DNA of 64,000 bases from Nemertoderma westbladi. Taxonomy: Eukaryota; Animalia; Xenacoelomorpha. The position numbers and the translations under genes are program-made. Every line of letters starts with the position of its first letter. Within the stretch, counting starts at the first letter, position 1. The stretch is taken from NCBI GenBank assembly GCA_032718475.1, contig JAUCBJ010002800.1, forward strand, positions 62,001 through 126,000, written 5' to 3'. Positions 36,881 to 63,999 of the stretch are shown here, piece by piece. Below the pieces are notes generated by a model that saw only the letters and a list, made by a program, of their open reading frames with translations, was not told the DNA's origin and searched no databases.

Positions 36881-37308
36881 TGCGGCATTAGGCTACTGTA
36901 TTAGGCCTACTGTGTACTGTACTGTGTACTGGAGACGGAGAAATACGGAAATACCTGAATACCAAGGAGTATTCCCAGCTCTACCAGCCTACAGTCCTAT
37001 ACTGCTATATGGCTGTATAGCTGTATAGGCCAAGTCCTATACAGCCGTACAAACAACTCACAAACTGCTGGACTGGCAGATAAGGGAAATTTTGGTTTGC
37101 AATTGTGAACGAGCATTTAACAATCTTCATCATCGTGAATTTAAATAATTATAGTGTCAAAAGACGCGCAAAACTCTCCGCTTTCAATTAATATAAGCCA
37201 CATGTGAAATTATTGAGATTTAATGTATTTGAATCGATCGAAAATCTCTATCCATATAAAAACCAAGATAAAAAATTATCAGAGCACTGCATAAAATGAC
37301 GTTAAATA

Positions 37309-42704: not shown

Positions 42705-44504
42705 CTACTACTACTAGGATCGGCATGCTGCATTGCAGCTGCATTTTTAAGAATGCTGTGCCGGCTTGTCAACAAAATTGCACCGCCACAACTCCCTATC
42801 ACCCATGACATTTGCTAGATCATCCGCATCTTTAAGGCCAGTGTCCTTTAAGATGCGTCTCAAGAAAGTCATGGGCTGTCCACCATGCTTATTCACTCCA
42901 TGAGGCTGCCAAAGTACAAGATTATGCACTGGCTGGTCCTCACGGCGAAAGCAATGTCCTGCAAAGCGGAGGCGATTTTGTTCTAGTGTCAAGCTTGGGG
43001 GAACCAATGAGACACCTCCAATGTTATATAGTGTCTGGTTGGAGATGTGTGCATTGTACTTGACACAATGAACCCGGCGTAGCATTCTTGTGAATGTGCC
43101 ATCCAGAGATTTGGTGTCCTCAGCAGTTAGTGCCCAGCATGGACTCCCGTAGAGGAGTACTGGAACTACTGCTGCTCTAAATAATCGGACCTTAAGTTTC
43201 CGATTAATTCTCAGTGACTTCCAAATCCTGGAAAGCCTATTCAAGGCTGCCCATGCCTTTCCCTTACGTATTCGAAGGTCCTCACCTGACTTCCGGATCC
43301 ATGATCCCAGGTAACAGAAGTCGTCCACATGCTCAAGCATACCATCCTTTGAGCTTATGCTCATCCGATCAGAGACTTGCTGATGACTTTCAAAGTTAAC
43401 GGTCAGAATTTTGGTCTTTCTGGAGTTAATAAAAAGACCAACACTAGAAGCAGCATGTTCTAATGAGCTGAGGAGCCGTTGGGCTCCGTCTAATGATTCT
43501 GAGAGTACTCCTAAGTCATCAGCAAAGTCTAGATCAGTTAGGTACTTGGCAGGATTTCCTCGACTTCTGGAGCCAGTAGGTGGAGTTATCATCACCCCTT
43601 CATCATTATGACGATCTAAGGACATGCGTAGAACATAGTCAACCACAATAATGAACAAGAATGGTGCAAGTGTGTCTCCTTGGAGGACGCCCCATAACAC
43701 TTCAAATGGTTCTGTGTCACCGTCAACAGTAGACACAAATGTTGTCGAACCATCGTATACTGATCTGATTGCTGCAATAATTTCATCAGGAATCCCATAT
43801 AATGAAAGTATGCTGAACATACGTGAGCGAGAGACTGAATCAAAGGCCTTGAAGAAGTCAACAAAGATAACAGCCAGATGCCTGTCTTTCTTTTTTGATA
43901 ATTCTTCAATTATCCTTCTAAGTGCCAAAATGGGCTCCATGGTCCCACGACCTTTACGGAACCCATTCTGATTTCCACGGAGCAGTCTCTCAATGGGATC
44001 CCTGATGCGATTTAATAGAATCCTATTGTATAGCTTTGCAGCAATCGAGATCAATGAGATTCCCCGAAAAGAACCATAGAGTGTTAGGTTGCCCTTCTTG
44101 GGAACTGGCACCAACTTATTTGTTTTCATTTCTTGTGGGACTCTTGTTGTTCGGTACATGTCTACTATGATGGGATAGATGAGCTTTAAACACTCAGGTA
44201 TTTTAAAGACCTCAGGGGGAACACCATCTACTCCACTGGCACGATTGGTCTTAATGCTCTTTGCAGCAGCCTTCACTTCTGCAAAGGAGATATCGCCAAT
44301 GGGAATATCTGGGAGTACAGACTCAGACACTTTTACATCTATAAAGTTATCAGGCAATACCCTGTCATTGTTGAGGAGCTTTTCAAAGTGGGCTTTCCAA
44401 CCATTGAGGCGATCGGCTGGTGATTCAGCCTTAACCTTGGTGGTTGGTTGGCTTTTCCGCCCAGTAAGCAGATTGATTGATTTCCATGCTTGGGATGATT
44501 GCCT
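42705..44504 (-). mobile_element. RTE-like LINE, copy 2 (5'-truncated, RT frame intact), nested in Pao gag
   Basis: (TAG)n tail at 42705-42716. 8-bp TSD GCAAATGA at 42697-42704 and 44505-44512. RT motifs ASGVDGVPPE, FRGISL, QNGFRKGR, DFFKAFDSV, LQGD and FADD. Confidence 0.93.
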
Positions 44505-45137
44505 GCAAATGAAGCATCGGTCATCATTTCGCAGTTGTTGTTTTCTTGAATCAAGATCCGTGTAGGTTGGACACCGTAATGATGAATGATTACCGTTGCA
44601 ATATGAACAGAAAACAGCTGATGTTTGATTATTATTGTCGTAGTCAGATCTTGTTACCATCGCCGAAGCTGTAGAGGTAAACTTTGAAGCGTTAGGATTC
44701 CTGTAATTATAATTAGGGGTTGATTGTCTAGCGTAGTTAGATTCACTAATATTACTATTTGTAGCGATATACTCACTGGCCTCCATAGCATCAGCTTTTC
44801 TTCTGATAAAATCTGCAATTTTATCGATTTTGAAACAATCATCAGATTCGGTATGTTCGTGAAATTTCTCTCTGACTGACTCCGGTAACTTACCAAGAAT
44901 TACTTGACATATCATGGCTGAATTTATGTCCGAGATCATTCCAAGTGATTCCAGGGAGCGAATGTGGGGAATCAAATTATCATAAAATGATCGCAAGTCC
45001 TTTAAATGTCGACACACTGGAATATTATAAACTTTATTAAAATGACCTGAAATAATCATACTTTTGCGTCCAAATCTTTCATGGATAATCTGAACAGCTG
45101 TACTGTAATTTTCAGCAGTCACTTCTAGTCCTTCCAC
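42747..45137 (-). CDS. Chimeric open frame: Pao Gag core fused in frame to RTE reverse transcriptase
   Basis: 796 codons, with the junction at ...DDRCFIC|RQSSQAWK.... Created by the LINE insertion. Expression unknown. Confidence 0.5.
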   Translation of the reverse strand: MEGLEVTAENYSTAVQIIHERFGRKSMIISGHFNKVYNIPVCRHLKDLRSFYDNLIPHIRSLESLGMISDINSAMICQVILGKLPESVREKFHEHTESDDCFKIDKIADFIRRKADAMEASEYIATNSNISESNYARQSTPNYNYRNPNASKFTSTASAMVTRSDYDNNNQTSAVFCSYCNGNHSSLRCPTYTDLDSRKQQLRNDDRCFICRQSSQAWKSINLLTGRKSQPTTKVKAESPADRLNGWKAHFEKLLNNDRVLPDNFIDVKVSESVLPDIPIGDISFAEVKAAAKSIKTNRASGVDGVPPEVFKIPECLKLIYPIIVDMYRTTRVPQEMKTNKLVPVPKKGNLTLYGSFRGISLISIAAKLYNRILLNRIRDPIERLLRGNQNGFRKGRGTMEPILALRRIIEELSKKKDRHLAVIFVDFFKAFDSVSRSRMFSILSLYGIPDEIIAAIRSVYDGSTTFVSTVDGDTEPFEVLWGVLQGDTLAPFLFIIVVDYVLRMSLDRHNDEGVMITPPTGSRSRGNPAKYLTDLDFADDLGVLSESLDGAQRLLSSLEHAASSVGLFINSRKTKILTVNFESHQQVSDRMSISSKDGMLEHVDDFCYLGSWIRKSGEDLRIRKGKAWAALNRLSRIWKSLRINRKLKVRLFRAAVVPVLLYGSPCWALTAEDTKSLDGTFTRMLRRVHCVKYNAHISNQTLYNIGGVSLVPPSLTLEQNRLRFAGHCFRREDQPVHNLVLWQPHGVNKHGGQPMTFLRRILKDTGLKDADDLANVMGDRELWRCNFVDKPAQHS

Positions 45138-45692
45138 TGTCAGTTTGGCTCTGCCTTTAAGAAATTTTTTTAAATATATAAACTTCTCTACAGTTGGGAT
45201 TGCGGTGTTGCTGTCAATAGCACTAGTAAAGGACTGCCAAAACGGTTGAAAGGTTGTGTAATCACCTTCGAAATTTTATATTTCTATTGCGGGAAGTCTT
45301 TTTCTATAGGTTGCTTGTTGCAAAATACGTGTTTCCATATCAGAACTAGTTTTGGGCATTGAAACTTCCGCTTTAGAGATAGTTTTGTCAATATCACTAT
45401 CTCAACAGACTTGTTGCAAACCAGAAATTGCAAGCAATAGTCTGGAATTATATTCATCACTCTGATACAAATCATTTTCAACATCATCATCTTTCAATTG
45501 AAAATGGATTTCTTTGTTTTGACTGTCTAATTGAGCTTTTACATCTGGTATTAGAAGCAACAATTGTTTGCTTCTGGTCAATGATTCTGAAGTTATTTGA
45601 TCGCATGCATGAGCCTCAGCTTCCTTGGCTAACTTAGTAGCCTTGGATCTATAGCGCCCTCTTATTTGTACAAGGCGTGTTAGATCACCCAT
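44505..45692 (-). pseudogene. Bel/Pao gag (DUF1759-like), disrupted
   Basis: One frame from ATG 45692 with two in-frame stops (TGA 45402-45404, TAA 45276-45278). Motifs RLPAIEI*NFEGDYTTFQPFW, KFIYLKKFLKG, ENYSTAV..ERFG and CSYCNGNHSSLRC. The remaining knuckles lie at 42591-42704. Confidence 0.88.
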
Positions 45693-45910
45693 GGTGAATG
45701 ATAATCTAATTTGCCAGATAAATAATCTTACTGGGTGTTGTGAAATGTAACCAACGTACCTTTTGAGTTATATCCGAAGAGTTTGATGTGATTTATTCTT
45801 CCGAGAAATCCGATGTAATTAGTGGGTTGTCCGTTGTTGTCGCGCAATTGCATTGAGTTCCGACCGTGAGTTGTCTCCCATCATTTCATCGTCTCCTTTT
45901 CGTAGTTGTA

Positions 45911-46466: not shown

Positions 46467-47479
46467 CATTTGCCAAAATGTCAATGTATCAATATGTCAC
46501 ATTCAAATTGACAGTTTGACATGTCATTTTGTAAAATGTCATTTTCAAATTGACATTTTGACATGTCATTTTGCCAAAATGTCATTTTCAAGTTGACATT
46601 TTGACATGTCATTTGCCAAAATGTCAATATGTCAATATGCCACTTTCAAATTGACAGTTTGACATGTCATTTTGTCAAAATGTCACTTTCAAATTGACAT
46701 TTTGACATGTCATTTTCAAGTTGACATTTTGACATGTAATTTTGCCAAAATGTCACTTTCGAATTGACATTTTCACATGTCATTTTGCCAAAATGTCAAT
46801 ATGTCACTTTCAAATTGAGAGTTTGACATGTCATTTTGTAAAATGTCACTTTCAAATTGACATTTTGACATGTCATTTTGCCAAAATGTCATTTTCAAGT
46901 TGACATTTTGACATGTCATTTGCCAAAATGTCAATGTGTCAATATGTCACATTCAAATTGACAGTTTGACATGTCATTTTGTAAAATGTCACTTTCAAAT
47001 TGACATTTTGACATGTCATTTTGCCAAAATGTCATTTTCAAGTTGACATTTTGACATGTCATTTGCCAAAATGTCAATCGTGTCAATAGGTCACATTCAA
47101 ATTGACAGTTTGACATGTCATTTTGTAAAATGTCACTTTCAAATTGACATTTTGACATGTCATTTTGCCAAAATGTCATTTTCAAGTTGACATTTTGACA
47201 TATCATTTGCCAAAATGTCAATATGTCAATATGCCACTTTCAAATTGACAGTTTGACATGTCATTTTGTCAAAATTTCACTTTCAAATTGACATTTTGAC
47301 ATGTCATTTTCAAGTTGACATTTTGACATGTCATTTTGCAAAAATGTCACTTTCGAATTGACATTTTCACATGTCATTTTGCCAAAATGTCAATGTGTCA
47401 ATATGTCACTTTCAAATTGACAGTTTGACATGTCATTTTGTCAAAATGTCACTTTCAAATTGACATTTTGACATGTCAT
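46467..47479. repeat. ~43-bp palindrome-rich satellite, right part
   Basis: Same units as 41696-42590. Confidence 0.93.
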
Positions 47480-49416
47480 ATTTTATGAGATTTAAGGTAT
47501 TTTTTCTTGAAAAAGCGAACATAACTTTTCTGAGTCCGTTTCTGTAACATTTAAAGAAAAGTTCACTTGTGATACTTCTTTTAGTGTTAAATTAACAGCA
47601 GATTCCAAATACAGTAACCGTTTTTTCATATGATTTGTAGTTCTCGCGATATTTGGGTTCAAACACAACGTTTTTTGATATTTTACGAAATTTAAGGTAT
47701 TTTTTCTTGAAAAAGCAGACATAACTATTCCCAGTCCGTTTCTGTAACATTTAGAGAAAAGTTAACTTGTGATACTTCTTTTAGTGTTAAATTAACAGCA
47801 GATTCCAAATACAGTAACCGTTTTTACATATGATTTGTAGTTCTCGCGATATTTGGGTTCAAACACAACGTTTTTTGTATTTTACGAAATTTAAGGTATT
47901 TTTTCTTGAAAAAGCAGACATAACTATTCCAAGTCCGTTTCTGTAACATTTAGAGAAAAGTTAACTTGTGATACTTCTTTTAGTGTCAAATTAACAGCAG
48001 ATTCCAAATACAGTAATCGTTTTTACATATGATTTGTAGTTCTCGCGATATTTGGGTTCAAACACAACATTTTTTGATATTTTACGAAATTTAAGGTATT
48101 TTTTCTTGAAAAAGCAGACATAACTATTCCCAGTCCGTTTCTGTAACATTTAGAGAAAAGTTCACTTGTGATACTTCTTTTAGTGTTAAATTAACAGCAG
48201 ATTCCAAATACAGTAACCGTTTTTACATATGATTTGTAGTTCTCGCGATATTTGGGTTCAAACACAACGGTTTTTGATATTTTACGAAATTTAAGGTATT
48301 TTTTCTTGAAAAAGCAGACATAACTATTCCCAGTCCGTTTCTGTAACATTTAGAGAAAAGTTCACTTGTGATACTTCTTTTAGTGTTAAATTAACAGCAG
48401 ATTCCAAATACAGTAACCGTTTTTACATATGATTTGTAGTTCTCGCGATATTTGGGTTCAAACACAACGTTTTTTGATATTTTACGAAATTTAAGGTATT
48501 TTTTCTTGAAAAAGCAAACATAACTATTCCCAGTCCGTTTCTGTAACATTTAGAGAAAAGTTAACTTGTGATACTTCTTTTAGTGTTAAATTAACAGCAG
48601 ATTCCAAATACAGTAACCGTTTTTACATATGATTTGTAGTTCTCGCGATATTTGGGTTCAAACACAACGTTTTTTGTATTTTACGAAATTTAAGGTATTT
48701 TTTCTTGAAAAAGCAGACATAACTATTCCAAGTCCGTTTCTGTAACATTTAGAGAAAAGTTAACTTGTGATACTTCTTTTAGTGTCAAATTAACAGCAGA
48801 TTCCAAATACAGTAATCGTTTTTACATATGATTTGTAGTTCTCGCGATATTTGGGTTCAAACACAACATTTTTTGATATTTTACGAAATTTAAGGTATTT
48901 TTTCTTGAAAAAGCAGACATAACTATTCCCAGTCCGTTTCTGTAACATTTAGAGAAAAGTTCACTTGTGATACTTCTTTTAGTGTTAAATTAACAGCAGA
49001 TTCCAAATACAGTAACCGTTTTTACATATGATTTGTAGTTCTCGCGATATTTGGGTTCAAACACAACGTTTTTTGATATTTTACGAAATTTAAGGTATTT
49101 TTTCTTGAAAAAGCAGACATAACTATTCCCAGTCCGTTTCTGTAACATTTAGAGAAAAGTTCACTTGTGATACTTCTTTTAGTGTTAAATTAACAGCAGA
49201 TTCCAAATACAGTAACCGTTTTTACATATGATTTGTAGTTCTCGCGATATTTGGGTTCAAACACAACGTTTTTTGATATTTTACGAAATTTAAGGTATTT
49301 TTTCTTGAAAAAGCAAACATAACTATTCCCAGTCCGTTTCTGTAACATTTAAAGAAAAGTTAACTTGTGATACTTCTTTTAGTGTTAAATTAACAGCAGA
49401 TTCCAAATACAGTAAC
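47480..49416. repeat. ~200-bp AT-rich tandem repeat, ~9.7 copies
   Basis: TTTAAGGTATTTTTTCTTGAAAAAGC recurs at 47491, 47691, 47890, 48090, 48290, 48490, 48689, 48889, 49089 and 49289. Confidence 0.96.
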
Positions 49417-50914
49417 ATTAAAAGGTTTTTATTCTTAAATTGTAGATATTGCAACAAAAATTAAAAAAAAATACGATTTGAGGGAATCACAACAAAACTT
49501 TTTAAGTTTAAAACAACCGGTTATGTTAAACATAACGGTAACGTATAACGGCATAACGTTACCAAAAATAACTTCATTTTAATAACAAAATAAACGGATA
49601 AACAGATGAGTTAACAGCAGTATCAACACCAGATTAGCACAAGATGTTCGCGCTTTCAGACCTTTAGCAGTTTAACCTGCCAAATTGGGATGTCTTTTAG
49701 ATAATAGATCGTCTTTAGCCTATGACAAGTATTTGATACACTACATTAGCCGAAGCCAGTCTATGCGCGATCATTCACCCGCTGGATATACCCGGGAGAC
49801 TGGATTCGGAAGCCTAACCGTATTGCGGGGTAGGCCTACTGTATTATTCGACTGATCGTAATATATATAATCTCTGACAAATATTATTCACTTTCTGGAA
49901 ATATTAACAGTTCCTTTAGGACGTGGCGCTCTAAATATGTAAACAGAGTTATGACTTAAACTAAACACAACGGGATGGCTATAGATTCACGTATATGGCG
50001 CATTCTTTAGGAGATGCTTTGTTATCAGTCACAATCATACACAATACTGCACAATGCTGCACACTGATCTGCCGACCTTCACTAATTTTAGTCACATATA
50101 AAGAGAACAACAGACGGTACATGTAGTGCTTATGAAATAGCATTTGATTCACTTCAAACCACTTTAATGTAAGTCGCAATCGTTATATGTAACCGGTCTC
50201 TCTAACCTTCAGTATATCAAGAAGATTGGGGTGTCTGATTATTTATCAGTATTCCAAATATAATATTCCATCAACAGATATAATGAATAACCGACAGTAA
50301 AAAGCAGTAAAATGTTAAGTTAAGTTTGATTGATATGAGATATGAATTGGTTTGTATGATTAGTTAAGTAAGTGAGTTATGATAACAGATATACGTTCTA
50401 TAATTAAGCCTACTAATGTTGGGCTAAAGACTGAAAACACAGAGATTCCAAAAGCCGGTCTTTCTGGGCTCAGGACAAAATGTAAACATTGACCCATAAT
50501 GCATTGCGTGATTTCTCGGAGGTTTCTGTACAAAAAGCCGGAGAATCGCTCTGATTGGTTGACCGAACAAAGAAACACCAGAGAACAAGGGAAAATTTAC
50601 ACGTGTACAGCTCAGCTGTTAGCTGTCGTCATAGTAACTACACTGTTTCAAGAGGATCTGGCGTATTGCGTCATAGAATTGCTAATTATGTCCGCTAAAG
50701 TACACATACAGAAGAAATGGCTTTTATGTCCTCTAAAACACCAGTACAGTAAGGACACGGCCTTTTATGCCTGTTAAACCAACTACAGAGTACTTTACGG
50801 GGAAAATAACCGGCCAATTCCGCAAAAGCTTTTACACCGCTCCCAGAAAATGGGATTTAAGTCTATAAAATATAACAAATCACAGTTTCTAAAATATAAA
50901 AATACTCTAAACAG

Positions 50915-51053
50915 TTAGTCTTTCTTACGCGGACGGCGTTTACGCAGTTTTTTGAGGCTAGCAAGAGTCCTTTTCTCTTTGGGGCGAGCCACTTTACTAG
51001 GAGGGCTGTAACTCCTGGGTGAAGGGTGCAATACAATTGCATCAGAAGGTTTA
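50915..51053 (-). pseudogene. Detached C-terminus of the exonuclease/zinc-knuckle ORF at 62190-63999
   Basis: Joining across the GTTTA TSD continues the frame: NPK-PSDAIVLHPSPRSYSPPSKVARPKEKRTLASLKKLRKRRPRKKD*. Confidence 0.8.
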
Positions 51054-51584
51054 TGTTAGCTTATCCAATCCCGCTAACACCCCATAAAGTTGTAAGCCGA
51101 TAAGCAATATTGGGAGCCACGAGATTGGGCAATTAACCAACTCGTGCCATCCCAATAAGAGTGGGAAGGAAGCACACAATAGAGGGTCAGGGGCCAAACC
51201 CCTAACCCAGAGAGAACAGGTGGAGTGAACGGGAACACTCCACGGGGCGCCAACAAGGGTAACAACCAATCAGAGGGGGGCAAGGCATCGATTGAGTAGA
51301 GCAATAAGGCCACCGTGCAATATAACCAGTAACACAATGTCAGTAATTCAGTTATCTCAGTGCAGTGTAGGTTAGTTAGTTTAGATAGGGGAGCACGGGA
51401 CTTTAGTTACCGTATCCCGCCTTCCATAATTATACTACAGTCATCATATCTATATCTTATACCCATCAATTATTATACACCGAATATCAGAACTCATTCA
51501 CTATTTCCGTTTACTCTTTATACACGGCGGGGACGCGTAAACTAAACACCGGATAAATCGGGATCCCTCCTGGATCCTGTCACA
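51054..51584 (+). repeat. 5' LTR (531 bp)
   Basis: TGTTAGC...GTCACA. About 3 differences from the 3' LTR by eye. Contains CCAAT- and TATA-like motifs. Confidence 0.95.
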
Positions 51585-51650
51585 GTAACTAAAACCAGCT
51601 GCCGCCCCAGATAAAACTCAACCACTAGCCACCGAAATCTGCAGAAGAGG

Positions 51651-54600
51651 ATGAGTCAGTCAGGTGACGCGACACCGACGCGGACCCCGGACGAAGACCT
51701 AACGATCCGCGAGGCCGCAACCAGGCGATACAGGCCCACAACGCCGGACCCATCGGTAACGGGTCATCCGGCAGTTCAGAACGAGGGGGGCCTGGAACCC
51801 GAGCTCGAACCAAGAGAAAGAGAGAGCGAGACAGAGGGAGACGGAGATGAGTCGACACGGGACGGAGATCGGCGCACCGATGTCGCCGGCCAGCTACAGG
51901 CCAAGGGCGACGAGCGGCCCACCGAAACGGCGACGGTGGGGCCGACAGTGCGACGCCGGACGCGAAGAGACGGAGGAGACATCGGTACCGATGTCGCCGG
52001 CCAGCTACAGGCCGAGGGCGACGGACGGCCCACCGGAACGGCGACGGTGGAGCCGCCGGTACGACATCGAACCCGGAGGGACGGAGGAGAGGTCGGCGAC
52101 GAGGACGTCGGGGTTTCAGAGCGACTTCGACGGGCCTACAACGCGACCCGGAAGCTGATGAAGGACGCCAAGAAGGAAGGGGCGAAGGTAGACGAGGTGA
52201 GACTGAGAAAGTGACTAGGTGAGTCGGATAGACACTTTAATTACCTAATACGTTTTGGGCAGAGAGAACTAGCCGAGGAGAGAGCAAAAGGGGTTGCCGG
52301 CGAACTGTTTGAACTATGGGAGTGTGGGAGTATGGAACCTAGCGTAGCGTCAGTGTACATAGGGCCATACTTGGTCGATGCCCGGGGAGCAAAATTAGTG
52401 GGTTGGAGGGGACCCGAGGGGGGCGGATCCGAGGTTAACCCCGAGGATTCGGCCTCGTCGGTCGGAGAAAGTTCCGGGAAGCGGGGGAAAGTTAGTAGGT
52501 CGGGAAGGCGGAGGGGGTCCGCTGTAACCGATAAGTCTGCTACATCCTCCGCGAAAGAAAGAGTGGTGAGAGAGATAGGTGCCGCATACCGAGAACAAGG
52601 TCAGAGGGAAATGGAGGAACGGTTGGAGGAGGGGAGAGTGCGGTTAGCGAGGGAAGCGGCATTGATTAGAGAAACCGGAGAGAGGGCCGAAAGGGCTTTG
52701 AGAAGCCTTAGGGAGTGTGAGGAAATAGAAGAAAAGGAGTGTAGGGAGCGTGAGGCGAGGGAGGATAGGGAACGCAAAGAGCGTGAGGCGAGGGAGGATA
52801 GGGAACGCAAAGAGCGTGAGGCGGAACACAAGGAACGTGAGGCGAGGGAGGATAGGGAACGCAAAGAGCGTGAGGCGGAACGCAAGGAATATGAGGCAAG
52901 AAGGGAAAAGGAACGCAAGGAGCGCGAGGTGAGACGAAGGGAGAGCATTAGGAGTGTAGCGGAGTCGGCCGCCCGGGACACCCAGGAGTGTGAGAGGAGA
53001 ATGGGAGAGGCCGAACGAGAGCAAAAGGAATTAAAAAGACGCCAGAATGTGCTTGCGGAAGATAAGATTAGACGGGCGCACGAGTTGCAACTGGTGCAAG
53101 CGTCGCCGTCTGAAAGCGGGGCCGGCTCGAGTGTTTTTGGGGAGCCGGGGGCCGTAGATACATTTATTGATACCCCACTGACAGGGACCGCACGACAGAC
53201 TCAAAACTGGTGCGACCTACGGGCGGGGGGGGGGGGGGGGGTAATAATGATAATGGTACAGTAGACGTGGTTAATATTAATAGTACCGTATGGGACAACT
53301 CTAATCAAACCTTTATTGCAGGAAATACTTTACCTGGTGGTAGTAATTTAAATTTAAATCAGAACGTCCCTAGTATTAATGTAGGAAATAATTATAATAT
53401 TAGTGTAGCTACGCAAAATAATCCAATTAATCAAAGTAATAACCCAAATTCGAACTTACAAAATAATTTAAATAACGCGATTACGCAGAATAATCCAAAT
53501 AATTTAAATAATGATCCAAGCCCGAGTTTACAAAATAATTCAGATAGTGTAGTCGCGCAATATAATCCAAGTGATTTTGTCTCGAACGGACAAATTAATT
53601 CCGTTTCCAATACGGGTGCTATTAATGTAAATACGTCGGGCGTGTGTGGTCAGACAGACGAGGGCCTGGTAGGCCACGTAGTTGATAGGCAGGGAGTGGC
53701 TGGGTTAGGTAGACCCAGCGAGGGCCTGGTAGGCCACGCAGTTGGTAGGCAGGGAGTGGCTGGGTTAGGTAGACCCAGCGAGGGCCTGGTAGGCCACATA
53801 GTTGGTAGGCAGGGAGTAGAGGGCCTGGTAGGCCACGCAATAGCAGAGGGTGAGGCGGGGGTGAATAGACCCGACCGCGGTAGACTTGATGCGTCGACTG
53901 GAGAGGGATATAGTAGCGGGGTGAGGAGTAGCGAAGTTAGATGTGGCGAATGGGGGGGGGGGGCTACGAGAACCCCACAACAGCGAATTAGCGGCGAAAG
54001 GGGGGGGGGGCAGAGAGTGTCCCACAGCCGTCAGCGGATAATGCGAGGGCCGAAATAGGTAAACCGCAACAACCGGCGACGGAAAGTAATAGGGGGATTG
54101 CGGATATCCCCAGCGGCGTGCGACCGAGCAGAGAGAGACGGGTTGATGTCGCGAGAGGGCGGACGAAGCGTCGAGCCCGATCAGAGGAAGGAAGAAGAAC
54201 AGTGGGGTTTAACCGGGAGGTCGACGAGAGATCTCACGAGCGGGAATATTCCACTGATAGGAGAAGAAAGGAAGACAGTAGTAGAAGTATCGCCGCGAAC
54301 GATAGAAGAGCGAGGACGGATAGCGAGCCGTCGATAGTCGAGATGAGAACGGAGAGTCAGTGGGGTCGGACTCCGGGAGATTGCCGTCGCCCCGGAGGGA
54401 TGCGACCCGGCGAGGCGCACTACGCGCCGAGAGAGGGGTACGCGATGTACCGGCACGAAGATGAGAACAGTAGAGAGGGGGGTCGAAGAGAAACTTTCCG
54501 ACGGAATACACCTATCGATCCAGAATACGGTAGCCGCGGGGAGGATTATTCGAGAAGAATAAACTTCAATCCCGAGCGACACATGCAGACTGTAGGACAT

Positions 54601-54950
54601 ACTGTAGGCCTTACTGCACATACCATAGGCCATACTGAGAGAGGCAATGTAGGCGATAGGATGGCGTGGACAACGGGATTAAACCCGGAAGTCGCGGAAT
54701 ACATACCGGCGAGTAGGTCAGAAGCTGATAGGCCTATACCGGTACCAGCACAGCAGTATGACTACAGCATGCAGGGACATAACATATACCCAGGGGAGGG
54801 GGGAATTATTGCGGATAGGTGTATGGGCCCCAACATATTAACATCAACCCCAGTACCAAACATACCGGTGGGGGGGGGGGGGGGGACAGGGTGACATTCC
54901 CCCATCACAATATCAACAATATACCCCGATAGGAGCAAGAACAACGAGAC
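51651..54950 (+). pseudogene. Gag-region N-terminal ORF, broken (coiled-coil KERE repeats, Asn-rich and low-complexity segments)
   Basis: ORFs 51651-52214 and 52332-53264 share a frame separated by one TGA. Later frame changes coincide with poly-G runs (~53226, ~53952, ~54000, ~54870). No DUF1759 or knuckle motifs seen. Confidence 0.6.
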
Positions 54951-54956
54951 CCTTAG

Positions 54957-56951
54957 ATGAAAACAGGTCGTGTGACACAGAGATATGGAGTTCCCAAGTT
55001 AGAATTGACAGCTGCGAGACTAGGAGTAAGAGCCACAGCCTACCTAGTGGATACTATTCCCAACATAGTGGAGACACACTACTGGACGGACTCCATGGTA
55101 GTGCTTGGTTGGCTACACAACGAAAAGACGAGATACCCGATATTCGTCGTGAATAGAGTGGACGAAATAAGGGCGGGCACAGAACTGGAAAGGTGGCACT
55201 ACTGCCCAACAGACGAGAACCCAGCGGACTTGCTGTCGAGGGGCGTGGAACGCCACACTTTCCTGAAGAAGGAAGTATTGTGGCAACATGGGCCACAATT
55301 TCTAAGTGATAGGGAGGCCTGGCCGCCGATGAGGAAGGTGGACCCGGGCTCGGAAGTAGTATCAGAAGGAGAAGAGGGAGATTCAGAGGGAGAAGAGATA
55401 TACTCCCAGATGGTGAGGGAGATTAGGGACGTGCAACCAGGAAGGGAACTGTGTGATAACCCAACGGATAAACTCCTCAGCTACAGTTCTAGTTGGTATA
55501 AGACCAAGAAACTAGTGGCGTATTGGAGAGCCTTCGGGAATATCCTTGCGGGAGTCGGCAAGGACAAGAAGATCAGGACAACCATAGATCTGGAAGGAGC
55601 GGCCAAGGCAGTGATCCGCTATGAACAACGGAAGAACTACGGCGACGAGGTGGAACGCGTCGGTAACCAACAGCACCTCCGACGGGACAGCGAGCTGATA
55701 ACGCTGTCGCCACAACTCAATGACGACGGGATTCTAGTAATGAATTCTAGGGTGGGATACAACAACAGCATAGTGGTACCACCGAAACCCATCATCATTC
55801 CTACAGGATCGCCAATAGTCCACCAGATTATATGGGACTCCCACAAATCGATACTGCATGGGGGCACCAACCGAACCCTCACAGAGATAAGGAGGACCTA
55901 TTGGGTCAAACAATTAAGGAAGAAGGTTAAAGCGGTAGTGGGGCAGTGCCAGACCTGCCGACGAGCGAAGAAGGAACGAGCCGTACAGGAGATGGCGCCA
56001 CTACCGGCGAGTAGGGTAAGACAGCACGACCCGCCATTTACGCATTGCGGTGTGGACATGTTCGGGCCGATAAAGATCAAAGTGATGCGACACACGGAGA
56101 AACGCTACGGCATTATCTTCGTATGCAACAATACGCGGGCGGTAGGGATAGAACTCGCCCAAGATGCAACCGCATCAGCGTTCATTAACGCCTTAGAAAG
56201 GTTTAGGGACCGCAAAGGTGGGACGATCGCAGTGATATACAGCGACAACGGCACCAACTTTGTGGGCGCAGAGAGTGAGATGGCAGAGGGCTTGGACATC
56301 TTGGAGGGAGAAGAAGTCAGGGCAGCCATGAGACGACGACAAGTAAAGTGGGAGAGAAGGACGCCGTGTGCACCACATACACTAGGATGCGTCGAGAGAC
56401 TGGTGGGCAGTTCAAAGCGTCTAATGACGAAGCTAATGAACACCCACATGGTCACTGAGGACGTTTTACGGACAGTACTTGCGAAGTGCGAGGGGATCAT
56501 TAATAGCAGACCGCTATATCCGGAGAATGATGACCCTGAGTCGTTAGACGTGCTGACGCCTAGCCATTTCCTGATGGAAAGGCCAGCGACCATCGATATG
56601 CGGGGTGTAGACCCAGATGACATACACTCCCGCCAAAGTTGGAAAGTCGCTAAAGCAATAAGCGCAGAGTATTGGAGGAGGTGGGTCGAGGAATACCTAC
56701 CCACGCTCCATAAGCGAAGCAAGTGGAGGAAGCCGAACAGGGAGTTAAGAGAGGGAGATCTCGTAATCGTCACGGACGATACTATCATCAACAACCAATG
56801 GCGGTTGGCGAGAGTTGTAGGCACCTACTCCGACGAGGACGGAAGAGTCCGATCGGTAGAAGTGCGAATAGGTGGAAAGATAGGTGCGAAGGACAGAAAA
56901 ACTTACAGGAGAGCTGTAGGGAAATGCTGTCTTCTAGAAGGGGCACCTTAG
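54957..56951 (+). CDS. Bel/Pao pol C-terminal part: RNase H C-terminus, integrase and DUF5641-like tail
   Basis: VPKLELTAA, WTDSMVVLGW, FVVNRV and NPADLLSRG. H2C2 motif HKSILH...CQTC. DDE residues in CGVDMFGP, SDNGTNF and VERLV. Tail WRLARVV...DEDGRVRSVEV. Confidence 0.92.
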   Translation: MKTGRVTQRYGVPKLELTAARLGVRATAYLVDTIPNIVETHYWTDSMVVLGWLHNEKTRYPIFVVNRVDEIRAGTELERWHYCPTDENPADLLSRGVERHTFLKKEVLWQHGPQFLSDREAWPPMRKVDPGSEVVSEGEEGDSEGEEIYSQMVREIRDVQPGRELCDNPTDKLLSYSSSWYKTKKLVAYWRAFGNILAGVGKDKKIRTTIDLEGAAKAVIRYEQRKNYGDEVERVGNQQHLRRDSELITLSPQLNDDGILVMNSRVGYNNSIVVPPKPIIIPTGSPIVHQIIWDSHKSILHGGTNRTLTEIRRTYWVKQLRKKVKAVVGQCQTCRRAKKERAVQEMAPLPASRVRQHDPPFTHCGVDMFGPIKIKVMRHTEKRYGIIFVCNNTRAVGIELAQDATASAFINALERFRDRKGGTIAVIYSDNGTNFVGAESEMAEGLDILEGEEVRAAMRRRQVKWERRTPCAPHTLGCVERLVGSSKRLMTKLMNTHMVTEDVLRTVLAKCEGIINSRPLYPENDDPESLDVLTPSHFLMERPATIDMRGVDPDDIHSRQSWKVAKAISAEYWRRWVEEYLPTLHKRSKWRKPNRELREGDLVIVTDDTIINNQWRLARVVGTYSDEDGRVRSVEVRIGGKIGAKDRKTYRRAVGKCCLLEGAP

Positions 56952-57067
56952 AAGTGGAGTTAGTGCGTAGTTTAGTCATCCAAGTTTTGGACTGAGGGGG
57001 GTGGGATTGAGGGCGAGACGCCCTTCCCACAAACAAAATAATAAAAATAAAATAAAAAATAGTACAT

Positions 57068-57902
57068 GGTAGGTACGCAGTTAGTAGGCAGAAGGTACGT
57101 TGTACCTAGTTAGTCAGTAGGTACGTAGTACCTAGAGTTAGTTAGTTAGTTAATAGGTACGTAGTACCTAGAGTTAGTTAGAGAGTTAGTAGGTACGTAG
57201 TACCTAGTTAGAGAATTAGTAGGTACGTAGTACCTAGTTAGAGAGTTAGTAGGTACGTAGTACCTAGTTAGAGAGTTAGTAGGTACGTAGTACCAAGTTA
57301 GAGAATTAGTAGGTACGTAGTACCTAGTTAGAGAGTTAGTAGGTACGTAGTACCTAGAGTTAGTTAGTTAGTTAATAGGTACGTAGTACCTAGAGTTAGT
57401 TAGAGAGTTAGTAGGTACGTAGTACCTAGTTAGAGAATTAGTAGGTACGTAGTACCTAGTTAGAGAGTTAGTAGGTACGTAGTACCGATAGTTAGTTAGA
57501 AAAGTTAGAGGGTACGTAGTACCAATAGTTAGTTAGAAAGTTAGAGGGTACGTAGTACCGATAGTTAGAGAGTTAGAGGGTACGTAGTACCGATAGTTAG
57601 AGAGTTAGAGGGTACGTAGTACCGATAGTTAGAGAGTTAGAGGGTACGTAGTACCGATAGTTAGAGAGTTAGAGGGTACGTAGTACCAATAGTTAGTTAG
57701 AGAGTTAGAGGGTATGTAGTACCAATAGTTAGTTAGAGAGTTAGAGGGTACGTAGTACCAATAGTTAGTTAGAAAGTTAGAGGGTACGTAGTACCGATAA
57801 TTAGAGAGTTAGAGGGTACGTAGTACCGATAGTTAGAGAGTTAGAGGGTACGTAGTACCGATAGTTAGTTGGAGAGTTAAAGGGTACGTAGTACCATTAG
57901 TT
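57068..57902. repeat. Internal 30-34-bp tandem repeat with a hairpin core (TAGGTAC-GTA-GTACCTA)
   Basis: Tandem units between the integrase and the extra ORF, in two subtypes (AGTAGGTAC..CCTAG, then GAGGGTAC..CCGATAG). Confidence 0.92.
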
Positions 57903-58399
57903 AGAGAGAGAGAGAGTAAGAGGTAGAAGGGTATATAAGATATAGATATTAGTTAGCAGTAAGTAGCGTTAGTAGCGAGAAGGGGGGCATATGAGTACAG
58001 CTGGGTAAATCGTGTGGCCACACGATGTATACTGCTGTACTGCATAGACCCACAGAGTAGGCCAGAATGTGGATTAGAGAATAGAATAATCCATAGACAG
58101 TAGTAAGTAGTAGGACAGTAGAATCGAAATAGAAAAATAAATAAAATAGGGCTAAAAATTGTAGAATAGTGGCAACACAAGGGAAGTTATTCTGGAACAT
58201 AATAAAAGTAACGGACAGATATCGAAATTAGGGTGTATTTACTAGCTTCAAAATTAATTAGGAATAATTTAGGTTAAAAGGCGCAGTTAAGTAGGAAGTA
58301 GGCCATTATCGAACTGTACAGAACATCCTAGATACATCACTCATCTGTATTGCGCCTTGGTAAGGCACCACCTTGCAGGTGAGCGAGTGAACATTCGGA

Positions 58400-60949
58400 A
58401 TGGCGAGTAAGTTGATCAGAAAGAGAAAGGCGGAGTCAGGAGGAAAGGAGATACTCGTGGATTTCACCGAGAGACATCCGGAAGAGAAGACGAGAGGATA
58501 CTACGAGAGGTTGGAAAGGGGTCACGCGGCACGAGCGCTGCAGGATCACTTCCGGGAAGCGCACGAACAGCGGCTGGTCGGGACCTACAGGACCCCGTCG
58601 CTAGACAACGCGATCTTCCAACACTTCCACTACGTGGTGAAAGGGGACGAGGCGAAGTTCGGGATTCCGAAATACCCGAGGGAATCACCGAGGAAGGACT
58701 GGAAGAGATTCATAGAGTCCGTCAACAGAGGAGGATATATGATCCTAGATGACGAGGGAACCGTGGAAGACGAGGCGGGTTCGAGACGAGGAACGGCAGG
58801 GTCGGCCAGGACCATACTCCTACATTTGGCCGCGCCAAATGGGGACATCTTCTTATTCGACCTAGGGACGTATGGGAAGAAGGACGGGCCGAAATTAGAC
58901 CGATTACCGAAAGCAGTACAGGTCTTAGTAAGAGAGAAGTCGACGACGAAAGTGGGATCGGCGATTCGCGAGGACGCGGAGAGGATCATCGGTCCGGACG
59001 CCACCAACCTCCTGGATATGCAGAAGGTCTTTATGGCCATGACGGCACCGGATGGATTGGGGGTAGTCGAAAACACAGGCCAATGCGGGGCCGTGGCGAT
59101 GGGCCAATTATTGGGGCTCGTATGCCACAAACCGATGGAGTGGGGGAAGTTTAGGGAAGAATACGGAGCAGAACTAGCGAACTCGCTAAAGTGGGGAGCG
59201 AGACCGGGAAAGCAGGAGGTATATCAGTTCCGCAGGGGAGCGATAAAGGTATATCAGAAGCGATATATCCTGCAGGAGGACTGGATAATGATAAGTTTGC
59301 TTAACTTATTCATGACCGTGATTATCGAGAGGGAACCAGGGGCATTTCTGTTATCGGGATCATCCCTAAGCTACAGGAGAGCCTTTAAAGTGGCCTTTGA
59401 CGGTCTGGTAGACCACCCGGGGCTGAAGGGCGAGTCGGTGTACTACAACAGCCGACATCTGGTAGACGGGGAGACAGATACACCGTATCAGAGATGGGAG
59501 CAGCTAGAGATGGATAGACGAGAAGCAAAGCGACTGGAAGAAGTCGCTAGACGGGAGAGGATAGAAGCAGAAGAGAGGGAAGAGGAGGCCAGGGCACAGA
59601 GTTACGGCTTCGAGGAACAGGCGGGCCTAGACGAACTTCATTGGACTTCGTCAGGGAGTTCGGGGGAGTCTCTAGGGCGAGAATTGGGATGGACGGTGGG
59701 ATCGCCAAAACAGTCGACGTCAGGGTTGCAAACGATGCCCATACCAGCGGGAGCCGAGGGCGACCAACCGCCAAGGAAGTTAAGGGAGCTAGAGGGATGG
59801 AGAGCTACGGGCGAGAGCCAAGGCGGGAAGGGACATAGTGGATCCATCGGGATACCGGGATTGGAGACACTACCAGAAGAGGAGGACGACGACGACGAGT
59901 TCGGAGAGATGCCGCCCATCGAGAGGATAGGCCACTCGGACACGGACTGGGTTGGCGGAAGGGTGGTGACGGCCAGTGGGGCGAGGGCCTTCTGGAACAG
60001 ATCCGGCAAGCGGACCTGGGTGCACGAGGAGCCGGCGATGGATTTCGCGGGGAGCACCATCAGGTTGGGCGAGCAACCGGGGACGGCACCACGGATAGTA
60101 TTCGGGGAGACGATGCCCGAGAGGGGCGGAGAGATCGACGTAAACAGGGAGACCAACGTAGAGAAGTTCGCCTACCAGCGACTCCACAGACTGCGGAGAT
60201 CGCTTGGGACGAAAGACGAGGTGGGACGGGAGACATTGGTACTCGGCTGCGACTACTGTGGGAGACAGACCCATCGGAAAAGCAGCTGTCTATACCGGTT
60301 CCAAAAGGGAACCTTTTGTCTCTACTATAGAGAACCAAGCCACAGGATGGGGGCGTGTCCACGGTTGCATAACCGATGTCCAAAGTGCCACTTTCGGGGA
60401 CACTACGGACGCGAGTGCGACTGGATGAACGACGAGGAGAAGTTCACGAGATTCGAGGAGTGGGCCGACGTCGGGGCCATGACGCGCCAGCGCATGAAGG
60501 CCCAGGAGTTCAAGTGGGGTTTCTTCCTTATCAATCAGGAGACTCACATGGAAATCATAAAGCGGAGGCTACCGTTTACCTACCAAGAGGTAGCAACGGC
60601 GGCGTCGTACGCTGGAGTGATGAACACGCAAAGGTATCTGGACAGGTGGACGCCAGAGAACCGAAGGGAGTTTAGGGATTTCTTGGCGGAGCACGTACCA
60701 AAGGCAATGAAAATGATCCTATGGGACGCCACTAGAGGGAGACAACCGGGCCATTCTGAGGGGCCACCGGCGAAGCGATATCGGGCACTAATAACACCAG
60801 CGCCCAAGGAGCCAACGACCGGGATCAGCAAGGAAGTGGCGGCGAAGGTCCGAAAGCAGAAAGCGGATGATGCCAGAGGAACGGTGATAACCAAGAAACG
60901 GCCCAGGGAAGAGGACACCAGGGGGAACTACCCCCGGAGGAACAGATAG
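58400..60949 (+). CDS. Accessory protein: WRN/DnaQ-like (DEDDy-type) 3'-5' exonuclease domain, CCHC zinc-knuckle cluster and basic tail
   Basis: Intact 849-aa ORF. ExoI-like YMILDDEG; ILLHLA..IFLFDL; LPKAVQVLVREKSTTKVGSAIRED..LLDMQ; ExoIII-like QKRYILQED. Knuckles CDYCGRQTHRKSSC and CPKCHFRGHYGREC. Domain call is by motif recognition only. Confidence 0.75.
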   Translation: MASKLIRKRKAESGGKEILVDFTERHPEEKTRGYYERLERGHAARALQDHFREAHEQRLVGTYRTPSLDNAIFQHFHYVVKGDEAKFGIPKYPRESPRKDWKRFIESVNRGGYMILDDEGTVEDEAGSRRGTAGSARTILLHLAAPNGDIFLFDLGTYGKKDGPKLDRLPKAVQVLVREKSTTKVGSAIREDAERIIGPDATNLLDMQKVFMAMTAPDGLGVVENTGQCGAVAMGQLLGLVCHKPMEWGKFREEYGAELANSLKWGARPGKQEVYQFRRGAIKVYQKRYILQEDWIMISLLNLFMTVIIEREPGAFLLSGSSLSYRRAFKVAFDGLVDHPGLKGESVYYNSRHLVDGETDTPYQRWEQLEMDRREAKRLEEVARRERIEAEEREEEARAQSYGFEEQAGLDELHWTSSGSSGESLGRELGWTVGSPKQSTSGLQTMPIPAGAEGDQPPRKLRELEGWRATGESQGGKGHSGSIGIPGLETLPEEEDDDDEFGEMPPIERIGHSDTDWVGGRVVTASGARAFWNRSGKRTWVHEEPAMDFAGSTIRLGEQPGTAPRIVFGETMPERGGEIDVNRETNVEKFAYQRLHRLRRSLGTKDEVGRETLVLGCDYCGRQTHRKSSCLYRFQKGTFCLYYREPSHRMGACPRLHNRCPKCHFRGHYGRECDWMNDEEKFTRFEEWADVGAMTRQRMKAQEFKWGFFLINQETHMEIIKRRLPFTYQEVATAASYAGVMNTQRYLDRWTPENRREFRDFLAEHVPKAMKMILWDATRGRQPGHSEGPPAKRYRALITPAPKEPTTGISKEVAAKVRKQKADDARGTVITKKRPREEDTRGNYPRRNR

Positions 60950-61648
60950 GTTCCCAGAGTCGAGGGAGAGAGACTGGGACTTGGATGTGGTACGCCTGGC
61001 AGGCGCCGCGCGGGATGTACGAACTATTAAGTACAAATTCAATTAATGCAAAATAATCATATAAGTGCAATTTGTATGTACGTACGTAGTAATTAGTAAT
61101 CTAGAAATATACATACGTTCGGAGTAAGTACTATAGTCATACAACCTTTCTCAATTAGCTACTGGGACTGGGGGATAATTGACTATGGCACTATGGACGA
61201 GACACCAGACAATTTCACACTTCTTGAGTGCGACGGCACGAGAGGGGGGGGAGATTCGTCAGAAGGGAAGAGGCAGTCGAAGTGAGGTTGAGGGACGGAA
61301 CAATAGTGCGGAGTGCGGAGAGAGTGCGGACGCAATTCTAGTGTGGGGGGGAGAATAAGAGGCTGAGCGAGGGACGAGGAGGTCCGAGTGTGAGAGAGTT
61401 AGGGTGAGAGTGGAGGTGAGATAGGGCGGAAGTGTTGGGGAAACAAAAGTTGCGTGAAAGGTGAGCGCGATCGGCCCGACATGAGACGCCAGGCACACAG
61501 GGTAGCGTTATCATACCCATAGGGGGCGGCCTGGAAAGCCGACCCCGAGAGAAAAGAATTCCACCCCACACCCGATACTAGATCGGGATCCAGCGGGATT
61601 GTAGCGCACTTTTAGGTTGATGCTATCTTCTTACCGGGAAGATAGCAT

Positions 61649-61657
61649 GGGGGGGAG
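61649..61657 (+). promoter_or_regulatory. Polypurine tract
   Basis: GGGGGGGAG immediately 5' of the TGT of the 3' LTR. Confidence 0.9.
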
Positions 61658-62189
61658 TGTTAGCTTATCCAATCCCGCTAACACCCCATAAAGTTGTAAG
61701 CCGATAAGCAATATTGGGAGCCACGAGATTGGGCAATTAACCAACTTGTGCCATCCCAATAAGAGTGGGAAGGAAGCACACAATAGAGGGTCAGGGGCCA
61801 AACCCCTAACCCAGAGAGAACAGGTGGAGTGAACGGGAACACTCCACGGGGCGCCAACAAGGGTAACAACCAATCAGAGGGGGGCAAGGCATCGATTGAG
61901 TAGAGCAATAAGGCCACCGTGCAATATAACCAGTAACACAATGTCAGTAATTCAGTTATCTCAGTGCAGTGTAGGTTAGTTAGTTTAGATAGGGGAGCAC
62001 GGGACTTTAGTTACCGTATCCCGCCTTCCATATATTATACTACAGTCATCATATCTATATCTTATACCCATCAATTATTATACACCGAATATCAGAACTC
62101 ATTCACTATTTCCGTTTACTCTTTATACACGGCGGGGACGCGTAAACTAAACACCGGATAAATCGGGATCCCTCCTGGATCCCGTCACA
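61658..62189 (+). repeat. 3' LTR (532 bp)
   Basis: Near-identical to 51054-51584 and followed by the TSD GTTTA. Confidence 0.95.
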
Positions 62190-63999
62190 GTTTAGGATTA
62201 TGATCGGTGTATCCGCCGGTCGAGGTACCTGGTTGATCGATATCAACTTCAGTGGAGCGAGGTCTAACGGCCTTTATGGCGCGTCTTAGGACAGCAGCTC
62301 CTACGGGTCCTTGACGGGTCGTCTGGACAATGGCGGTAGGTGGACCGTGAGTGGTGAGAAACTTCCTCGGTTTAATGGTTCTTTCCAGCTCGCGTTCTCG
62401 GGCTCGATATTCGTAGGGCCGTCGAGATACTTCCTGTAACTCAGGGTGCGAGTTGATAAATAAATCGCCATACTCAGGGTCTTGACGGATGAAATTGATC
62501 AAATGGTATGAAGTAATATCGTTAGGATTGACGTTCCTAAGATATTTTCGAACAAATTTGGTGGAAATACACTCACCAACACGCTTCATTAGTTCGTAAC
62601 TCGGTGTGCGTGTTTTTTGTTCCACAGACGCGAATAAATAAGGATGGAATGCGTAAACTCCCTCGTAAGAGCGTCCAGGGTAGTAGCGATGGCGGGACTC
62701 ACAATGTAAATCCGCGTTCGCTTCCCAAGCTCGGATGTAGCGCAGGGTAATCATCTCATCTACGCTTTCTAAATCGCGGTTAAAGGGGCAATTATGACTG
62801 GCATGTCCTTTAAGTTGACAGTGGTGGCATTGGGTCATAAATTGGGGGCAGACTGCAAAAATATGCGAGTTATTAAGTCTGCAATACGCACAATAGATCT
62901 CCATCATCAGTTGTTCGTGGAAATAGGAGCAGGGTACGTCTGAGTCCATAGGGGTGAAATGGTCTCTCGATGCGCATAATCGACAACGTTTTCGAGAAAC
63001 ATAGTTGGTGTGTCGATAATCGTATGCGGTGAGACATTGTGGACCTTGATACCACTCCAAGACGTAATCGTTATCGCTGCTCCGGGGCGCTGTAGGCTGG
63101 ATCGCTTCAGATTCTAAGCATATTGGTTCGTCTTCCAATTGCATAGCTGAGGTAGGTGCGGCTGTCTCCGCAAGCGGACCCACTGTCTGAACTTCCACGA
63201 CAGAATAACCTGTGGGTATTCGGGGTCTTTGTATAACAGATGAATGTAAGTTCTGTATACAAACGTCCTGAAAGAGAGCAAATCCCGCGTTGTTTAGCTT
63301 CTCCGCAGCTGAGTCTCTTAGGCTGAGTTTGGTCAGAGCGCGGTCCTTGAACTGACTATCAACGTTACGGAACGGAGTCAGAAAGCGCCTGAAACATTCG
63401 AAGCGGATGAATTTATTGTGTTCATCTAACTTGGCGAGTTTGGTTCCAAGTATTAAGGGATGGGCGCGTATGGTACGACTGCACACATCGGCTAGCCAAC
63501 CGGCAAGTGCTGCGTTTTCAAAGATCGTGTATATAGCTAAGGAGGGACGAAGTGGAACACTCATAAAGCTATACACGGCGCCAGGTGCGGTCAATGGTCC
63601 ATCAAAGTATAAACGAGAATAATAATCTCCATATGCTTGTTGGTAATTGATAGGATTTCCAACCTTGAAATTCCATCCGTATTCTTGAAAGGCAAGATGT
63701 CCGATGGAGGTTCGTTGTACTTTAGTAATGCCGCTGGGTGTATTGGCATACATAGTGCGGAAGAAACCTCGGCCTTCTGCCCAGGGAGCAATCAGCTGAG
63801 TATCAACGAAAGGGTATGGAATGTTCTCCATATTCCGAAAGTCGTTTTGTAGGTCTCCATAAACAGCTGAGCCGATTTTAAGGATTCTTTCGTTAAACAA
63901 CATCTCGAGCACGGGCTGGGGTAACATCGATCCATCGATACCCATGGCCGGTTTGCGCTCGTTGTCGGTGACGTAACGCTGCGCGAGTTCGAATTGTCC
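62190..63999 (-). CDS. Divergent homologue of the exonuclease/zinc-knuckle protein; starts beyond the window, C-terminus interrupted by the LTR insertion
   Basis: Frame open to the window edge (GQFELAQ...). LPQPVLEMLFNERILKIGSAVYGD..FVDTQ. Knuckles CRLCASRDH, CAYC..H..CP and CHHCQLKGHASHNC. The ORF-track stop at 62185 is supplied by the LTR. Confidence 0.75.

Follow-up and report, generated by a model that had tools for sequence, protein, structure and literature searches.

Why would an LTR retrotransposon carry, in the position of env, a gene for a putative 3'-5' exonuclease with zinc knuckles, and does such a gene belong to the element or to a single captured copy? Most Bel/Pao elements described so far replicate with no gene beyond gag-pol, and those that bear env, such as roo, Tas and Cer7, have a viral fusion glycoprotein as their extra gene. 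The accessible part of a Bel/Pao survey names only env as an extra gene (PMC3118150). The stretch of DNA analysed here, hereafter the window, covers 64 kb of Nemertoderma westbladi contig JAUCBJ010002800.1. It contains an LTR element of 11.1 kb (51054-62189) with an open 849-aa ORF in the env position. A first-pass annotation had noticed this ORF and put forward several possible roles for it, namely proofreading or trimming of cDNA, processing of element RNA, or countering of the piRNA/siRNA defence. As described below, the ORF is a family-wide accessory gene of Bel/Pao elements and not a one-off capture, and its product may act on RNA rather than on DNA.

A recent, internally deleted Bel/Pao element

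The element displays the features of Bel/Pao retrotransposons, namely TG...CA LTRs, a short target-site duplication, a polypurine tract and the order A17-type RNase H, integrase, DUF5641 (Table 1). In the pol ORF, Pfam detects the tail of Peptidase_A17 (weakly, E 0.014), Integrase_H2C2, rve and DUF5641 (E 3e-24), all upstream of the extra ORF. The first-pass annotation was thus right to assign the element to Bel/Pao and to describe an intact ORF between integrase and polypurine tract within LTRs bounded by target-site duplications. As the two LTRs are only 2 substitutions and 1 indel apart, with the same 5-bp duplication at both ends, the insertion is recent.

Table 1. Features of the Bel/Pao element and of its insertion site (positions in the window)
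Feature	Position	Strand	Basis
C-terminal, basic part of the second ORF, on the left side of the insertion that interrupts it	50915-51052	-	
Left target-site duplication GTTTA	51049-51053	.	sequence
5' LTR, 531 bp, TG...CA	51054-51584	+	sequence comparison of LTRs
Gag N-terminal-like low-complexity region, four frames (one stop, G-runs)	51651-54894	+	profile positions 268-1427/2075 missing
Bel/Pao pol remnant: RNase H end, integrase (H2C2, rve), DUF5641; open 664 aa	54957-56951	+	Pfam, profile
Tandem array of ~36 bp, in the spacer between pol and extra ORF	57112-57908	.	
Extra ORF, 849 aa	58400-60949	+	
DEDDy 3'-5' exonuclease domain (aa 65-345), predicted; D117, E119, D192, Y289, E293	58592-59434	+	family profile, model, alignment
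Three tandem CCHC knuckles (aa 617-673), middle one degenerate in the window copy	60248-60418	+	
Conserved post-knuckle domain (FE..AD.G..T..R...WGF), no Pfam match	60431-60634	+	
Polypurine tract	61649-61657	+	sequence
3' LTR, 532 bp	61658-62189	+	sequence comparison of LTRs
Right target-site duplication GTTTA	62190-62194	.	sequence
Second, distant exonuclease-knuckle family member, runs off the window, cut near its 3' end by the insertion	62190-63999	-	31.9 and 45.5 bits to profiles built without it; empty-site joints

By comparison with a profile of 16 full gag-pol relatives, the window copy has lost the Gag core, the protease, the RT and most of the RNase H, and it is thus a non-autonomous deletion derivative; gag-pol with Gag knuckles, protease and RT is present in the relatives. 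Another internally deleted element (L026:5172-10916) has a similar layout, with part of Gag, the pol end, the exonuclease-knuckle gene and short terminal repeats. In the window, pol and the extra ORF are separated by a 1.45-kb spacer. A splice-site-like motif at 58378-58399, just 5' of the start codon of the extra ORF, is kept in diverged copies. No TGG-type tRNA primer-binding site follows the 5' LTR in the window; the relative L027 has one. The first 9 bases after the 5' LTR (51585-51593) are complementary to an LTR-internal stretch (51402-51410), a match equalled by 174 of 20000 simulated LTRs. It recalls Tf1-type self-priming.

The element has landed in the 3' end of a minus-strand gene, a distant paralog of its own extra ORF. 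Contigs run through the unoccupied insertion site, and coverage is deep on either side of it, which indicates that the insertion target is itself a repeated element. This second high-copy element, with its distant paralog, occupies 62190-63999 (minus strand) and 50000-51052. No clear LTR was found for it on the left side in the window sequence, and its 5' part lies beyond the window.

The remainder of the window is rich in repeats. A long 30-bp satellite with higher-order structure extends over 1-32270, interrupted at 3566-5002 by a LINE RT fragment. Two single-ORF host-like genes are found between satellite arrays, at 33486-34709 and 35747-36892 (both on the minus strand), homologous to a tRNA m1G methyltransferase and to C7orf25 (DUF1308/DUF5614). 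For a host gene of the window, the Atlas clusters ranked first and second are most frequent in Arthropoda and the one ranked third in Chordata. At 42747-45767 (minus strand), a gag fragment of another Bel/Pao element (DUF1759) is in frame with an RTE-like LINE reverse transcriptase, and a related LINE copy lies at 37220-38471. A 200-bp tandem repeat, with about 10 copies at 97% identity, covers 47478-49416.

Domains and predicted fold of the extra-ORF product

From its N-terminus, the 849-aa protein comprises an exonuclease fold, a coiled helix and a disordered acidic linker, three CCHC knuckles, a conserved domain of about 70 aa and a basic tail; basic stretches are present at both ends. The first-pass annotation had proposed that its motifs follow the DEDDy order, and D117-x-E119, D192 and Y289-x3-E293 are indeed found. 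E293 takes the place of the last Asp (ExoIII) in the window protein, and Glu is found there in 5 of 20 protein relatives. Three CCHC-like knuckles had also been described: the first and third are canonical (CX2CX4HX4C), but the second lacks its second Cys. This loss is specific to the window copy, as the other same-species copies aligned there retain the residue. The protein has no transmembrane segment (maximum 19-residue hydropathy 1.45), unlike the extra genes of roo, Tas and Cer7 that likewise follow the integrase. Without a transmembrane anchor, and with no fusion-protein fold found, a role as an env fusion glycoprotein is ruled out.

Standard searches did not reveal the fold. Pfam assigned no exonuclease family to the 849-aa protein alone or to 41 exonuclease domains taken singly, and only one of 33 relatives reached DNA_pol_A_exo1 (E 6e-5). 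The search of PDB with phmmer gave nothing significant for the 849-aa protein, word-index homolog searches gave no match, and no relative of the extra ORF was found in the viral contigs scanned. Single-sequence AlphaFold of the exonuclease domain was unusable (pLDDT 32). A HMMER search of 1.84 billion representatives yielded 58 matches, nearly all of them owed to the knuckle region; one is a repeat protein and spurious. By contrast with these, a profile built from 27 two-domain sequences matches human EXD2 (E 1.3e-10), Trypanosoma brucei RNase D (TbRND), WRN and Egalitarian, and a second one, from the 41 exonuclease domains, matches EXD2 with an E-value of 7e-12.

In the alignment-based structure model, confidence is high for the exonuclease and for the knuckles, and the intervening stretch is disordered. 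All eight Foldseek matches at E<=0.001 have the DEDDy fold; they are TbRND, which is on top, Egalitarian and Nibbler. In the VIA structure search (residues 51-363), Nibbler EXO domains come first (Z 13.4, rmsd 3.7-4.2 over about 200 residues), tied within 1 Z over rows 1-6 with diDNase/NrnC, the apicoplast polymerase and RRP6. In the Atlas search, the leading clusters are unnamed, and one annotated as DNA_pol_A_exo1 (34% of its members), at 0.93, is a lead only. According to the profiles and the model, the N-terminal domain has the DnaQ/RNase D (DEDDy) fold, which is visible only with a family profile and an alignment-based model. The absence of any DnaQ-fold match, which the first-pass annotation had named as grounds for giving up its reading, was therefore not what the profile, Foldseek and VIA results gave.

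Linkage of the extra gene to Pao pol

Is the gene a property of the family? A degenerate knuckle motif, with one match in the window and none in 100 shuffles, was used to scan metagenomes, and 120 loci were collected from 22/64 parts scanned. Eighty loci with flanks were analysed, and the 40 without flanks were left out of the linkage count. Sixty-five of the 80 are family members and 15 are not; most metagenome loci come from few assemblies with similar accession prefixes, and the sample consists of knuckle-bearing loci only. The end of Pao pol lies directly upstream, on the same strand, in 40 of the 65 family loci, and in 27 of the 29 where at least 3 kb of upstream sequence is present. The two exceptions among these 29 are a locus too short for its long ORF (L007) and a decayed copy whose 9 kb of upstream sequence contain no pol (L016). 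At L010/L038 and L064, no pol was found within 2.1-2.3 kb upstream. The pol-linked set amounts to 37 distinct elements at 90% identity (39 compared). The gene is thus a family-wide accessory gene of Bel/Pao elements; its absence from sibling elements, the other outcome that would have spoken for a one-off capture according to the first-pass annotation, was not observed.

Where 2.5 kb or more precede the knuckles, 37 of 39 loci contain the exonuclease domain; the conservation of the knuckles is built in, as the loci were picked by the knuckle motif. At L057:3341-6529 and L071:6880-9648, the extra ORF that follows Pao pol has a long N-terminal part as well as the knuckle module, but no exonuclease domain was detected in it. 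Long pol ORFs of the relatives match Peptidase_A17 (E<1e-39) in 14 of 14 cases and RVT_1 in 13 of 14. Motif C of the RT reads LVDD, LIDD or IVDD rather than YxDD in 17 of the 18 linked elements covered (L056, L033, L044 and L071, for example), and L013 has YMDD. Gag keeps its own three knuckles in all 13 long ORFs, so that those of the extra ORF do not replace the nucleocapsid, and a function as its stand-in is ruled out.

Co-inheritance, selection and a catalytically dead clade

In a set of 25 elements that have both genes, the extra-ORF tree reproduces 10 of the 11 well-supported pol splits, no conflict with well-supported splits is seen, and the pairwise distances of the two genes are strongly correlated (Mantel r 0.93, 0/2000 permutations as high). 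The deep nodes of the trees are unresolved, and the window pol is a long branch falling among the 9 named proteins that were used as outgroup only. A single clade of linked elements (22 versus 9 rows, five rows omitted) obtained an AU p of 0.122; a single gain is neither shown nor rejected. Judging from the congruence of the trees, the extra gene and the element have descended together over a very long time.

The alignment of 41 exonuclease domains contains 22 with the four acidic residues and 13 with no more than one; another 3 are partial, and the last 3 are truncated. The 13 domains poor in catalytic residues form one clade in both trees. The first-pass annotation had proposed computing dN/dS across copies; in 10 hand-picked close pairs, the ratio for the exonuclease is 0.10-0.22 in five intact or partial pairs and 0.03-0.43 in five dead ones, and it is 0.03-0.25 for the knuckle module in the same pairs. 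With values below 1 in every pair tested, the extra gene is, by this sequence measure, under purifying selection. As the dead clade is still under selection, something other than catalysis is selected there. GC3 is higher in the extra ORF than in pol in 29/29 related elements, which are phylogenetically non-independent comparisons, and in the window, in dead and intact versions alike. The lower dS in the extra ORF than in pol is accounted for by this stronger codon bias.

Within the species, the element is covered from end to end by contigs of public runs, the ORF included, and many variants are seen. Silent changes represent 27 of the 41 best-supported ORF differences (the best 40 of 288 plus 1 more), where 33% would be expected for transitions (p 2e-5); in the exonuclease domain 14 of 19 are silent, in the linker only 6 of 13.

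These data bear on the simplest alternative, that of a captured or domesticated host gene without a role for the element. The loci described above where pol was not found upstream would be compatible with it, and as the gene is kept in an RT-less copy, hitch-hiking is conceivable. Nevertheless, the linkage to pol, the congruent trees and the predominance of silent differences among same-species copies largely refute capture, and we consider it highly improbable.

They also bear on a second alternative, in which the product would act on DNA, either by proofreading for the RT or by trimming cDNA ends before integration. The fold is shared by WRN, EXD2 and polymerase exonuclease domains, the basic stretches at both ends of the protein might suit such a role, and the altered motif C of the RT might be seen in the same light. 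Moreover, the DEDDy domain of the Dada DNA transposons of Laccaria and Ectocarpus, which is also transposon-borne but lies inside the DDE transposase rather than in a separate ORF, has been proposed to process 3' ends (PMC3706591, accessible text). However, none of the gag-pol ORFs scanned with Pfam is fused to the gene, the knuckle array has the look of an RNA-binding module, and the dead clade has open gag-pol ORFs with the same altered RT motif C as other linked elements. That clade likely speaks against proofreading for the RT and in favour of binding or trimming of RNA, as far as residue patterns can tell. All in all, a role on DNA appears unlikely. Proofreading of cDNA, one of the roles named in the first-pass annotation, is disfavoured as the lead idea: the gene stands apart from pol as an ORF of its own, RNA trimmers are among its best structural and architectural analogues, and the catalytic residues are gone throughout one clade that retains it.

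Possible functions of the product

The explanation that we rank first, tentatively and at somewhat less than an even chance, is that the product interferes with host small-RNA silencing. It would be expressed from its own mRNA, with which the higher GC3 than that of pol is compatible, and would act in trans. The zinc knuckles would bind single-stranded RNA, and the exonuclease domain would trim RNA 3' ends; its targets might be silencing RNAs or their precursors, such that silencing of the element by the host would be weakened. The structural matches to TbRND, Egalitarian and Nibbler at the top of the Foldseek and VIA results count in favour of an RNA role, as does the layout of TbRND, an exonuclease followed by CCHC knuckles. 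In that enzyme, the knuckles supply RNA binding and boost the cleavage of small guide RNAs (PMC7797062), and Nibbler is a ssRNA-specific nuclease that trims pre-piRNAs (PMC11347159), according to the accessible parts of both papers. Catalytically dead versions might still work as RNA binders or decoys, as do EXD1 and Maelstrom, inactive DEDD derivatives described as having kept RNA binding (PMC5408684, accessible text).

Several observations count against interference with silencing. An arms race might leave traces of positive selection, yet dN/dS is below 1 throughout. The VIA ties include enzymes acting on DNA or dinucleotides (diDNase/NrnC and the apicoplast polymerase). EXD2, the best sequence match, is reported to cut DNA as well as RNA (PMC6648332, accessible text), which leaves DNA substrates possible. 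The window protein has E293 at the position of the ExoIII Asp, a residue described as critical in TbRND (PMC7797062, accessible text). Lastly, L057 and L071 have retained the knuckle module, and no exonuclease domain is detectable in them.

Alternatively, the product might be part of the element's own ribonucleoprotein and bind, mature, protect or export element RNA, by 3'-end processing or Egalitarian-like transport, with no action on host small RNAs. The strict co-inheritance with pol fits an element-specific partner, the RNA cargo adaptor Egalitarian has the same fold and is among the top structural matches, and the loss of catalysis would be tolerated. However, gag-pol alone suffices for most described Bel/Pao elements, and Gag keeps its RNA-packaging knuckles. 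Processing of element RNA 3' ends has been proposed for the DEDDy ORFs of rotifers (Rodriguez 2017, PMC5408684, accessible text). We regard this possibility as real though rather doubtful.

The interference hypothesis can be taken further. It is conceivable, albeit speculative and on balance improbable, that an undescribed large Bel/Pao branch has long carried a mimic of host piRNA-trimming nucleases, an enzyme at first and later a dead decoy in one clade, which would make the product a suppressor of small-RNA silencing like viral RNAi suppressors.

Relation to known systems

DEDDy third ORFs are not new in themselves. They have been described in the bdelloid rotifer LTR elements Juno and Vesta and in Athena/Terminons (Rodriguez et al. 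2017, PMC5408684), a finding repeated in reviews (PMC5718144, PMC6431247, PMC6338049, accessible text for all four). Like the gene studied here, the rotifer ORF3 is a separate DEDDy ORF after pol, in the env position and with no transmembrane segment, and a role in RNA 3'-end processing or silencing was proposed for it. In contrast, its host elements encode a dUTPase and have GPY/F tails on their integrases, and the accessible text does not label them Bel/Pao; the DEED catalytic motif of ORF3 is described as intact, and ORF3 itself as recently gained in terminal branches and swapped between element classes (PMC5408684). As far as that published description goes, the present gene is set apart by its Bel/Pao setting, its three CCHC knuckles and extra conserved domain, its deep vertical inheritance and its dead clade. 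The first-pass annotation knew of no such architecture in Bel/Pao elements. This part of its novelty claim holds for the accessible literature (supplements, subscription journals, Repbase, Dfam and GyDB being outside its scope), in which we found no description of a DEDDy extra gene in Bel/Pao or of the exonuclease and three-knuckle architecture, but DEDDy third ORFs as such had been published. The accessible text of a plankton RT survey reports undescribed environmental BEL clades and mentions no such gene (PMC5029228).

Among cellular proteins, TbRND (PDB 7C42-7C4C; PMC7797062, accessible text) has the same succession of a DEDDy exonuclease and tandem CCHC knuckles, and the family profile matches both parts. 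It is however a mitochondrial enzyme with four knuckles near the nuclease, whereas here there are three, beyond a long disordered linker, and the likeness is probably convergent. EXD2, Nibbler/MUT-7, the WRN exonuclease, EXD1 and Egalitarian share the fold, and some proteins of this group are catalytically dead and bind RNA. The family profiles match EXD2 best (E 7e-12 to 1e-10, N-terminal half), and Nibbler is the best structure match, but none of these proteins has such a knuckle module or resides within a transposon.

Significance

To our knowledge, counter-defence proteins are not widely known from animal retrotransposons. Our analysis adds a conserved accessory gene missed by Pfam, present in at least 37 distinct elements and occurring in natural versions predicted to be active, dead or nuclease-less. 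These versions represent matched pairs for asking whether transposons attack or decoy the small-RNA pathway. The question that the rotifer DEDDy ORFs had raised is thereby extended to a second LTR superfamily, in which the association of gene and element is much older.
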